NCBI RefSeq assembly: GCF_003334785.1
Contig: NZ_QOWV01000006.1
Length of the DNA stretch: 64,000 nt
DNA from: Escherichia coli
Lineage (GTDB): Bacteria; Pseudomonadota; Gammaproteobacteria; Enterobacterales; Enterobacteriaceae
Reading direction: 5' to 3' (one strand)
Shown piece after piece: positions 35,101 to 38,100 of the stretch. The first letter of the stretch is position 1; each line of letters begins with the position of its first letter. The position numbers were made by a program.

Positions 35101-38100
35101 GATCTTTTCCTGAGCGAACGCTAACCCGCCATACATCCGGTGTTCGGCGCAAATGTGACCATCGACAATATCCACCGCCGTGGCATCGTTCACCAGCGCC
35201 GCATTCAGTTGCACACTTAACCGTGCTGCCAGCGCTTTACCACGTTTCGTCGCGGCCAACAGCAACATAGCGGGGTGTTTATCTTTCAGCAGGGCAGCAA
35301 TGCTTTCGGCGTAATTTTCAGTGCGTTGCAGCGCGTCGTTTTGCGCAAGAACATAAAGACATTTTGGACCATAAGGCATAACTGCCTGCGCCTGGTCGGT
35401 ATTTTGTACAATGGCATACACCTGTTGGCCCCATTGCTGAGCGCCGCCAAACAGTTCAGCATAACGTTCAGGATTATCGCTAAAGACCCAGACGCTGTTT
35501 AATTGACTCATCGTTTCTTCTCCGTAGGCTTCAGTTCAGGGCTTTCTTCAGATGTTCCGCCAGCTCGGCAATGGCCTCCGGCGAATCGTTATCGATAATG
35601 ATGTGCTTACGTTCTGTTTGCGGCGGTACGCGAATGCCGACCAGTTCAGCAAGTGGCGCGCTCTGGCTCCAGTCAATATCACTTGCCTGCCACTGATTTA
35701 CCGGTTTTTTACCCGCGCCGAGAATGGCTTTCATCGAAGGAATGCGTGGCACGTTAATATCGGAGGTGACGCAGAGCACGGCTGGAACAGAGAGTTCAAT
35801 AACTTCAACATCATCTTCAAGCGTGCGTTCAATCACCAGTGTATTGCCCTGACGCTGAATAGCACTCACTGCATTAATCACCGGAAGTTGCAGAATTTCT
35901 CCGACCAGCAAGCCAACCTGCTGGGCATAAAGGTCGCCGGAACCTTCACCAAAGATCAGTAAATCGAAGCCGATCTTTTCAATTGCTGCCGCCAGCGCTT
36001 TTGCGGTATCGAGAGGCAGTGCATGTTCAAGTTGCGCATCCTGCACCAAATACAGGCTGTGCGGCCCGCGGGATAGCACGTCTTTGCGCACTTTCGAGTT
36101 CTGCAACAATGAGCCGCCAACGGTCAGCGCGGCTATCTCATCGTCATCTGTTGCGAGCTGGCTTGCAGCTTCAATGGCATTGAGATCGAACTGGCTGATT
36201 TTGGCGTCGGCATTGTCGAAATTCAGGGTGTATTCTGGAGTGACAACAATGTCCTGTTCTTCAGGCACCAGCTTAAAGCAGGTTATTATTTTCATGATTT
36301 CTCCTGTGAGTCGCATACGGAACCATCTCCGATGGAAGGTAAAAATGGCCTGAAAATAGTGTGCGATAGCGGTGCGGGGTTTTCGACGGAGCAAGCTGTT
36401 TTCCTTGCCAACAATCTTGCAAAAAAAATGCGATCGCTAAAACAAAAGTGCAATTTGCGGCAATATAGTTATTCCATGACCGTACAATCTTGCATTCAGT
36501 GTAAATAATCTTGTTTAGCTCTCGCTAAACGCGGTTGTATAACCGCAATACACGCCGTATTTTATCCGGCATATATTGTTTTTGCTTGCTCATGGAATAG
36601 GGAGGTTGTCATGTATCAACGCTGTTTTGATAACGCCAGTGAAACGCTGTTTGTCGCCGGTAAAACGCCACGGCTTTCACGTTTTGCATTTAGCGATGAT
36701 CCAAAATGGGAGTCCGGACATCACGTTCATGACAATGAAACCGAGTTGATTTACGTCAAGAAAGGGGTTGCAAGGTTTACCATCGATTCTTCGTTATATG
36801 TCGCACATGCGGATGACATTGTGGTGATAGAACGCGGCAGGCTGCATGCGGTGGCCTCTGACGTTAACGATCCGGCAACGACGTGTACCTGTGCGCTGTA
36901 CGGCTTTCAGTTTCAGGGGGCTGAGGAAAATCAGCTACTGCAACCGCATTCTTGTCCGGTAATTGCCGCGGGGCAGGGAAAAGAAGTCATAAAAACCTTA
37001 TTTAATGAGCTAAGTGTGATTTTGCCGCAAAGTAAAAATAGCCAAACATCTTCGTTATGGGATGCATTTGCCTATACGTTAGCCATTCTTTACTACGAAA
37101 ATTTTAAAAATGCTTATCGTTCGGAGCAGGGGTATATTAAAAAAGATGTTCTGATAAAAGATATTCTTTTCTATCTGAATAATAATTATCGCGAAAAAAT
37201 CACTTTAGAACAGTTATCGAAAAAATTTCGTGCCAGCGTCAGTTATATTTGCCATGAATTTACCAAAGAGTATCGTATTTCCCCTATTAACTATGTTATT
37301 CAACGGCGTATGACGGAAGCAAAATGGTCACTCACTAATACTGAATTATCACAGGCAGAGATCTCCTGGCGTGTGGGTTATGAAAATGTCGATCACTTTG
37401 CCAAACTGTTTTTGCGCCATGTCGGTTGTTCGCCCAGCGATTACCGTAGACAATTTAAAAACTGTTTTGCGGAACAAGAAATCCTATCTGAATTTCCTCA
37501 ACCGGTAAGTCTTGTTGGATAAATCTGGCGGCGCAGTTTGTTAAGAAGCTGCGCCGCCTGCAGATTATTTGTTCTGATAGTCTTTCAGGATCTGCCGACC
37601 TGCTACGTAAATCATAATTTCGTCTGTACCGCCGCCGATACGTTCACAACGGACATCACGCCAGAAGCGGGAGACGCGCGCCTCATCGGTATAGCCCAGA
37701 CCGCCCATGATTTGAATCGCATCATCAATGACTTCCATTGCGGTACGTGCACAGTACAGTTTTGCCAGCGCCGCGCTGGTGCGCAGTGACTGATGCTGAT
37801 CGGCTTGCCATGCCACTTTCAGCACCATGTTGCGCATGTTGTCGATCTTAATCGCCATCAGCGCCAGTTTTTCCTGGATCATCTGGTTATGACCAATGGG
37901 CTTACCAAAAGCGATACGTTGGTTGGCATAGCGGGCGGCATCTTCAAAGGCGCATTCGGCAAAGCCGGTGCTGCGCGCGGCGTTGATCAGGCGCTCCATC
38001 TCAAAGTTGTACATCACATTGAGGAAACCCATTCCTTCTTCGCCCACCATGTCGCTCTCTTCAACCTCCACGTTGTCGAGATAGACTTCGCAGGTGCTGA

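Follow-up and report, generated by a model that had tools for sequence, protein, structure and literature searches.

A conserved three-site candidate operator of the AraC type between ydiQ and ydiP of Escherichia coli and its counterpart upstream of ydiN

The ydi cluster of Escherichia coli contains an electron transfer flavoprotein (ETF) operon, ydiQRST-fadK, that is divergent from ydiP, a gene for a regulator of the AraC family. We have analyzed the spacer between ydiQ and ydiP in a 64,000-nucleotide stretch of contig NZ_QOWV01000006.1 (assembly GCF_003334785.1), which is referred to here as the window. The spacer contains three direct repeats that together look like a strong candidate operator of the AraC type, with YdiP as the protein that would bind to it. 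These repeats are conserved from Escherichia to Yersinia and Dickeya, about ten genera, and a similar module is present upstream of ydiN. The operator pattern points to ydiQRST-fadK and ydiN-ydiB-aroD as members of one local regulon.

Three direct repeats in the ydiQ/ydiP spacer

A repeat search of the spacer yields three same-strand copies of A(A/T)TCTTG(C/T), comprising ACAATCTTGCA twice, 73 bp apart, plus AATAATCTTG. The copies are designated R1, which is proximal to ydiQ, and R2 and R3, which form a distal tandem pair (Table 1). The 21 bp that separate R2 from R3 equal two helical turns and the 73 bp from R1 to R2 equal seven. A position weight matrix built on the repeats gives a half-site consensus of approximately nCnWA(T/C)(A/T)ATCTTG(C/T)(A/T), with information that spans about -6 to +7 around ATCTTG, and R1 is the top match to this matrix in the whole window at 21.2 bits.

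Tandem direct repeats of ~17 bp with a 21-bp periodicity are a hallmark of AraC/XylS-type dimers. R2-R3 has this form, with ~17-bp direct-repeat half-sites at a centre-to-centre spacing of 21 bp, and the repeats are additionally conserved above the neutral background and recur at a second promoter. An initial annotation of this DNA had argued that the region should contain an operator, had given no specific operator sequence and had named a motif search for AraC-type direct repeats as one check. That search returned R2-R3 at 21 bp and R1 at 73 bp from R2, and the expectation holds with regard to AraC-type repeats that are conserved and duplicated at ydiN, with binding by YdiP presumed from sequence. 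A candidate partner half-site for R1 in the conserved block beside it, termed 'R0' (CAAGCTGTTTTCCT), was rejected as its matrix score is strongly negative and the R0+R1 pair reaches only 6.7.

Conservation of the repeats across genera

For comparison, 40 loci encoding YdiP relatives were fetched, one genome per species, from Escherichia, Citrobacter, Kosakonia, Serratia, Symbiopectobacterium, Brenneria, Dickeya, Prodigiosinella and Yersinia, with spacers that range in length from 314 to 911 bp. An alignment of 11 short spacers from three genera (Escherichia, Citrobacter amalonaticus and Kosakonia) has a mean identity of 81%, and all three ATCTTG cores and their flanks form invariant blocks in it. 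More widely, the distal pair ATCTTG-N15-ATCTTG is exact in Escherichia, C. amalonaticus, Kosakonia, Serratia, Symbiopectobacterium, Brenneria, Dickeya, Yersinia and Prodigiosinella, and in the C. freundii group ATTTTG replaces the R3 core. The R2-R3 spacing is 21 bp in all genera examined and all copies are on the same strand. Of the 37 spacers examined, 35 have an exact R1 core, the exceptions being a metagenome-assembled genome (L035) and one skipped spacer.

The position of the repeats relative to the flanking genes is also retained. In most genera, R1 is found at a distance of 100-142 bp to the ydiQ ATG, as compared to 221-451 bp in four with longer leaders. R2-R3 likewise holds its place relative to the ydiP ATG, at about -124/-103 in the majority of genera. 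The additional DNA of the long spacers falls between R1 and R2, and the rest of the spacer diverges.

Three distant homologues of ~50% identity were also located (L054, L055 and L056). In L055 (identities of 53% for YdiP, 57% for YdiQ and 65% for YdiN) the ydiN-like and ydiQ-like genes are divergent and share a 1.26-kb spacer, with the YdiP homologue encoded 7 kb away at the far end of a ydiQRST-fadK-MFS (major facilitator superfamily) operon. This spacer carries GCCAACAATCGTGCA, which is nearly identical to E. coli R1, a 21-bp pair GAATCTTGCA-N11-GAATCTTGCT, and AATAATCTTGCA on the opposite strand, facing ydiQ. Thus, the motif follows the ydiN and ydiQ promoters of loci with a YdiP homologue even when the regulator gene is not divergent.

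A second module upstream of ydiN

Only two exact matches to ATNTTG-N15-ATNTTG occur on both strands of the 64-kb window, with 0.35 expected. One is R2-R3 and the other, at 43598-43624, belongs to a second three-site module (Table 1) with cores N1 (ATATTG, 43525-43530), N2 (ATCTTG, 43598-43603) and N3 (ATATTG, 43619-43624). The spacings of 73 and 21 bp and the orientation towards the gene are the same as those of R1-R2-R3 for ydiQ, and R2-R3 and N2-N3 are identical at 27 of 39 bases. To guard against circularity, the matrix for a scan of 21-bp pairs was trained on non-Escherichia sites only. The best two pairs in the window are R2-R3 (38.1) and N2-N3 (25.3), with the next unrelated pair at 4.4; pair-score maxima in 200 random 64-kb sequences had a mean of 8.2 and a standard deviation of 3.9, with the highest at 25.9. 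The ydiN-upstream module is kept in C. amalonaticus, Kosakonia, Serratia and Yersinia, where N2-N3 are spaced by 21 bp (22 in Kosakonia) and N1-N2 by 74-369 bp. In the E. coli ydiM-ydiN spacer, N3 overlaps the ydiM stop codon.

The initial annotation had also assumed that the regulator controls the adjacent catabolic operon. The divergent geometry agrees with this assumption, and its limitation to one adjacent operon was too narrow, since the operator pattern is also found at ydiN-ydiB-aroD. The aroD-ydiF spacer contains no repeat motif in 12 genomes, and ydiF-ydiO therefore do not have an operator of this kind of their own. In some genera these two genes may be transcribed by read-through from ydiN, and in others they may be under control of their own. 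The aroD-ydiF spacer (40326-40467) has in E. coli a GC-rich hairpin after aroD at ~40424-40456, contains GAATATTC-type palindromes in Citrobacter and Kosakonia, and is only 94 bp long in Serratia. Elsewhere in the window, a single repeat-like site (TCCAATAATGTTGCACAA, 45380-45397, minus strand) is present upstream of ydiL and beside rprA; its score of 14.2 bits is within the chance range for 64 kb.

Domain structure of YdiP

YdiP has the build of a ligand-responsive AraC protein, which combines a cupin ligand-binding domain with a double helix-turn-helix (HTH). The N-terminal domain matches AraC_binding at residues 28-144 (E = 2.4e-10) and Cupin_2 at residues 30-89 (E = 7.6e-11), and the C-terminal double HTH matches HTH_18 at residues 202-281 (E = 1.6e-20) as well as HTH_AraC. 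Sequence matches in the PDB are to the DNA-binding domains of AraC, SoxS and MarA. Among curated families, only HpaA (TIGR02297), the regulator of 4-hydroxyphenylacetate catabolism, can be aligned with YdiP along almost its entire length (residues 36-281). YdiP is not a member of this family as it scores 49 bits against a cut-off of 275, and the curated family search assigned no NCBIfam equivalog. Of the regulators encoded in the cluster, YdiP alone is shared by all genomes examined. In Shigella and some E. coli, ydiP products are truncated or fused to an insertion sequence (IS) (P0010, P0055, P0062 and P0082).

Promoter-like and other elements in the spacer

On the ydiP side, 16 spacers that represent all nine genera have TG-n-TATA(A/C/T) at a fixed distance from the R3 core, which it follows by exactly 24 bp. 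As a -10 candidate, this element would place R3 at about -42 to -37 and R2 at about -63 to -58, which is a class II AraC-like geometry. Since the distal pair is situated at the putative ydiP promoter, autoregulation by YdiP is likely. Ahead of the ydiP ATG, all sequences of the three-genus alignment have GGAGGT, which is largely preserved in the wider alignment as well.

On the ydiQ side, R1 overlaps a -35-like TTGCAA hexamer on the ydiQ strand and is embedded in a ~50-bp block that is conserved from E. coli to Yersinia and reads, towards ydiQ, T8-GCAAGAT-GTTGG-AA-AAAACA. This is followed by CATATTATCATGTCG in Serratia, Yersinia and Dickeya and by CAGCTTGCTCCGTCG in E. coli. Nearer to ydiQ, all sequences of the three-genus alignment share TAGTGTGCG, which persists as CGCACACTATTT in Serratia and TCAATATAT in Yersinia. 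A run of 7-9 A directly after R1 is kept in nearly all spacers examined, being interrupted in a few Citrobacter and in a 'Martelella' contig, and may act as a DNA bend or UP-like element. Next to this run, Escherichia, C. amalonaticus and Kosakonia share a conserved TG-n-GATCG; in Citrobacter, Kosakonia and Serratia, TGTGA can be read by eye at a comparable distance beyond N1.

Table 1. Features of the ydiQ/ydiP spacer and of the ydiN-upstream module, in window coordinates
Feature	Position	Strand	Remarks
ydiQ/ydiP divergent intergenic control region	36296-36610		315 bp; from coordinates and annotation
R1, ydiQ-proximal repeat, GCCAACAATCTTGCAAAA	36407-36424 (core ATCTTG 36414-36419)	+	21.2 bits
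R2, first half-site of the distal tandem pair, CCGTACAATCTTGCATTC	36480-36497 (core 36487-36492)	+	20.0 bits
R3, second half-site, GTAAATAATCTTGTTTAG	36501-36518 (core 36508-36513)	+	21 bp from R2
Putative ydiP promoter -10, TTG-TATAAC	36535-36543	+	24 bp after the R3 core
ydiP ribosome-binding site, GGGAGGT	36600-36606	+	From alignment
Conserved block beside R1, GGCAAGGAAAACAGCTTGCTCCGTCGAAAA in ydiQ direction	36380-36406	-	Candidate spacer/-10 of a ydiQ promoter, suggested by alignments
Conserved block, GCTATCGCACACTATTTTC in ydiQ direction	about 36352-36370	-	Alternative -10 candidate (CACTAT/TATTTT) or site of another factor
A8 tract directly after R1	36421-36428	+	Precedes TTGCAA as a T tract when read on the ydiQ strand
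TGnGATCG element between R1 and R2	36429-36436	+	Possible CRP half-site; read by eye
Second three-site module, upstream of ydiN	43518-43629	+	Pair score 25.3; ydiN ATG at 43400, minus strand

Several other elements were considered and set aside. A terminator-like hairpin on the minus strand, formed by the inverted repeat TTTAGCTCTCGCTAAA right after R3 (36513-36530), is probably due to chance; Escherichia has the repeat, Citrobacter has a degraded form of it, and Kosakonia lacks it. A sigma-54 promoter (TGGCAC-N5-TTGCA) was rejected as R1 and N1 read T(G/A/T)CCA-N7-TTGCA, with CC for GG in all genera, and a TyrR box (TGTAAA-N6-TGTTTA) between R2 and R3 was rejected as it is found in E. coli only, has a poor right arm and is not conserved. 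Rfam covariance models gave no match up to an E-value of 1 on either strand of 36000-36900. For an FNR-activated promoter (TTGAT-N4-ATCAA) the only good match is TTGATTTACGTCAA at 36746-36759, a near-consensus box that falls within the coding region of ydiP, 135 bp downstream of its ATG, and encodes L-I-Y-V-K. This box is confined to a K-12-like lineage (K-12 and one other Escherichia genome), with its synonymous positions differing in all other genomes examined. It coincides with the site CTTTCTTGACGTAAATCAACTCGG that was proposed for a 'ydiP/ydiQ' peak in an FNR chromatin immunoprecipitation (ChIP)-chip study (PMC1802558). Additionally, the first ydiP codons (36618-36652) contain two copies, 25 bp apart, of the direct repeat AACGCTGTTT, a sequence that is listed for a low-class FlhDC peak from genomic SELEX (systematic evolution of ligands by exponential enrichment) (PMC9962212).

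Boundaries of the spacer and gene neighbourhood

The start codon of ydiQ, on the minus strand, is read as CAT on the plus strand at 36293-36295, and the ydiP ATG at 36611-36613 opens a 303-amino-acid reading frame on the plus strand. The spacer between these divergent genes is thus exactly 36296-36610, and the 315-bp intergenic region between ydiQ and a divergent AraC-family ydiP that had been described in the initial annotation is borne out by the start codons and by RefSeq. In the RefSeq annotation of identical E. coli DNA, including that of K-12 MG1655, ydiQ encodes an ETF subunit and is followed by ydiR, ydiS, ydiT and fadK, ydiP encodes the AraC family regulator with ydiO-ydiF converging on its 3' end, and aroD, ydiB, ydiN, ydiM and ydiL are located beyond ydiO-ydiF. 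The spacer region is found in 5353 of 5426 complete E. coli genomes at an identity of at least 95%.

Divergent ydiQ/ydiP genes flanked by ydiR-ydiS and ydiO-ydiF are present in 38 of the 40 fetched loci, the other two being fragments of one split E. albertii assembly. With the exception of these two fragments, the order ydiR-ydiQ / ydiP / ydiO-ydiF-aroD(-ydiB) is found throughout. Across genera, YdiO and YdiF have amino acid identities of ~88-97% (nearly all full-length loci, L002-L041), as compared to ~58-85% for YdiP, YdiQ and YdiR.

The ydiQ leader exhibits two further peculiarities. E. coli EC7518 (L057) has an IS1 with a 9-bp duplication (CCATCTCCG) located 28-36 bp upstream of the ydiQ ATG, equivalent to window 36323-36331, which parts ydiQ from the candidate operator and promoter. 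In Brenneria (L024), Dickeya (L025) and Prodigiosinella (L029) the lengthened leader, in its part from the R1 block to ydiQ, contains an extra conserved small open reading frame of ~40-50 codons that has CCGGAGAAAA as its ribosome-binding site.

Published expression data

Transcriptomes of shikimate-accumulating strains are compatible with co-induction of both operons, with growth phase as a confounding factor. Specifically, transcripts of ydiN, ydiB and aroD are raised in a carbon-limited shikimate producer (PMC4585142), and those of ydiQ, ydiR, ydiS and ydiT rise 20-32 fold late in the growth of another (PMC4015609). A review found no raised anaerobic expression of fadK in transcriptome studies and no evidence of control by FadR or CRP (PMC9329746). 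The Salmonella ydiQRSTD operon has been linked to butyrate utilisation, and the ydi cluster has been employed in engineered reverse beta-oxidation.

Discussion

The explanation that we consider moderately probable is that the spacer constitutes the operator-promoter region of a YdiP regulon, which would include ydiQRST-fadK, ydiN-ydiB-aroD and ydiP itself and would be controlled in the fashion of AraC, with a ligand switch and DNA looping. The protein at the three-site operator is most likely YdiP. A YdiP dimer, joined via its N-terminal cupin domain, would occupy R2-R3 at about -33 to -70 of TG-n-TATAAC and control the ydiP promoter, and a further YdiP DNA-binding domain or dimer would bind R1, where it would overlap the -35 (TTGCAA after the T8 tract) of a leftward ydiQ promoter. 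R1 and the distal pair, being on the same face of the DNA, would communicate by looping, which is the only possible link in some genera because R1 and the distal pair are 250-340 bp apart there. A small acid or acyl-coenzyme A (acyl-CoA) bound to the cupin domain would change these contacts, as in AraC, and would turn on ydiQRST-fadK and, via N1-N3, ydiN-ydiB-aroD, possibly with read-through into ydiF-ydiO.

A number of observations weigh against this explanation. A ChIP-exo analysis of YdiP in glucose M9 reported five sites only (sdhC, uxaB, secG, cspA and yihQ), at a signal-to-noise of 1.7-5.5, with none at the ydiQ/ydiP locus (PMC8464067). When these five regions were placed by approximate coordinate conversion to the current genome version, they did not contain the repeat, with a best matrix score of 8.9 versus 18-21 for R1-R3; therefore, either those sites or the repeat are not true YdiP sites. 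A genetic-interaction study that renamed YdiP as CsiP, a cold-shock regulator, included ChIP-seq at 15 C, and a text search of 20 of its supplementary files found no ydiQ, ydiR, ydiO or fadK (PMC9283627). These ChIP data are weak evidence against YdiP action at this locus because the cluster is not expected to be induced under the conditions of either experiment. Within the DNA itself, a matrix pair scan found no recognisable partner half-site for R1, a consensus scan of 36200-36700 found no sigma-70 promoter, the ydiQ-proximal -10 candidate of E. coli (CAGCTT) is poor, and the -35/-10 geometry proposed for the spacer is conjecture. The distant homologues L054 and L056 have no motif within 9 kb, with their ETF promoter being outside of the fetched DNA. 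Lastly, a LysR-family gene is divergent from ydiN in Serratia (L044) and Yersinia (L045), with spacers of 620-970 bp.

Some of these points are better accommodated by other explanations. If the repeats are YdiP sites with YdiP acting mainly as a repressor, R1 would cover the ydiQ -35 and R2-R3 would shut ydiP until relieved by the ligand. Agreement with such a role comes from Serratia, Yersinia, Dickeya and Brenneria, where the ydiQ strand reads T8-TTGCAA-(18 nt)-CATATT/TATTAT and thus resembles a reasonable stand-alone promoter with its -35 within R1. However, E. coli, Citrobacter and Kosakonia have a poor -10 (CAGCTT/CAGATT) at the corresponding place and the consensus scan returns no promoter, which is the usual sign of activator dependence. 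In addition, cupin-domain AraC-family proteins are mostly activators or dual regulators, and we regard a mainly repressing YdiP as unlikely. It is also quite improbable that the repeats are bound by another regulator, with the targets of YdiP located elsewhere, for example at cold-shock genes. This other regulator could be an unlinked factor, the HTH protein YdiL or, in some genera, the LysR protein whose gene neighbours ydiN. Such binding would account for the lack of any sign of YdiP at the locus in the ChIP-exo list and in the ChIP-seq supplements and for the lack of the motif at the reported YdiP sites, and candidates are at hand in the LysR gene of Serratia and Yersinia and in ydiL (Aca2_YdiL HTH), which is close to ydiN in Yersinia and two genes past it in E. 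coli, Citrobacter and Kosakonia. Yet 21-bp direct repeats are typical of AraC/XylS dimers, whereas LysR and Aca2-type proteins bind inverted repeats. The LysR gene is absent next to ydiN in E. coli, Citrobacter and Kosakonia, and the motif is kept in these and in L055 without it. In contrast to such genes, ydiP accompanies the motif in all genomes, as no other regulator gene does. Moreover, the ChIP experiments were done under non-inducing conditions with low signal-to-noise and with matches at highly expressed genes.

Finally, spacer expression could be set mainly by global regulators such as FNR, ArcA and CRP, with the neighbouring AraC-type gene being incidental. The FNR ChIP-chip peak at ydiP/ydiQ (PMC1802558) and the conserved TGnGA element between R1 and R2 are in line with such control. 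We nevertheless consider it very improbable, as the FNR-like site is inside the ydiP coding sequence of the K-12-like lineage only, the review cited above (PMC9329746) reports neither raised anaerobic fadK expression nor evidence of FadR or CRP control, and three invariant direct repeats that are duplicated at ydiN are left unexplained.

The preferred assignment, an AraC-type operator for YdiP, can be compared with well described systems. As in araC-araBAD (with AraC sites I1-I2, O1 and O2), the regulator gene is divergent from the operon it would control, the regulator has a cupin domain and two HTH, ~17-bp direct-repeat half-sites are 21 bp apart, a tandem pair is located at the regulator's own promoter, like araO1, and a further site at a helical-phase distance could loop, which is here predicted from sequence. 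Unlike araC-araBAD, the ydi repeats have no sequence similarity to ara half-sites, R1 is apparently single with no I2-like partner, and the module is reused at a second operon, ydiN. The XylS/Pm and MelR/melAB operators consist of tandem direct repeats with 21-bp periodicity, of which the proximal one reaches the -35. The ydi sites are like these in that several sites are spread over ~100 bp of spacer, which is divergent in melR-melAB as well. They have the TGCA submotif in common with the XylS box (TGCA-N6-GGNTA) but lack its second sub-box GGNTA, with conservation running 5' of ATCTTG instead. The divergent control region of caiTABCDE/fixABCX, the paralogous ETF system of E. coli, uses CaiF, CRP and FNR. 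The ydi cluster is similar to cai/fix in having a FixABCX-like ETF operon (ydiQRST), a CaiA-like acyl-CoA dehydrogenase (ydiO), a CoA transferase and a CoA ligase (fadK), along with a divergent spacer and a pathway-specific factor, which is predicted for ydi. It differs in that its regulator is of the AraC type and not CaiF, in having no conserved FNR site, and in the location of ydiF-ydiO, which are behind ydiP and not divergent from the ETF operon.

A divergent control region of the AraC type is a textbook kind of element. The specific operator prediction is new, as are its duplication at ydiN and the link it provides between shikimate/quinate and ETF/acyl-CoA genes; none of these is present in the literature that was searched, where we found no paper on a YdiP operator or on the function of the whole cluster. 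A further idea, which we put forward as speculative and rather doubtful, is that ydiN-ydiB-aroD(-ydiF-ydiO) and ydiQRST-fadK are one YdiP regulon for an undescribed anaerobic pathway of hydroaromatic acids, with the acid or its CoA ester being the YdiP ligand. Quinate, shikimate or dehydroshikimate would be taken up and converted to a CoA thioester by FadK/YdiF, and the CaiA-like YdiO, fed by the FixABCX-like YdiQRST, would reduce or oxidise this thioester. If true, such a pathway would be the counterpart of carnitine (Cai/Fix) or caffeate respiration, about ten y-genes would gain a function, and the constant association of a quinate/shikimate dehydrogenase and a dehydroquinase with an ETF/acyl-CoA dehydrogenase cluster would be accounted for.

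The ydi cluster (ydiN, ydiB, aroD, ydiF, ydiO, ydiP, ydiQRST and fadK) is without a settled function, and the assignments of YdiP targets are weak and contradictory. A conserved candidate operator provides a direct experimental handle on this cluster and predicts joint induction of the shikimate/quinate and the ETF/acyl-CoA genes, which narrows the search for its substrate.

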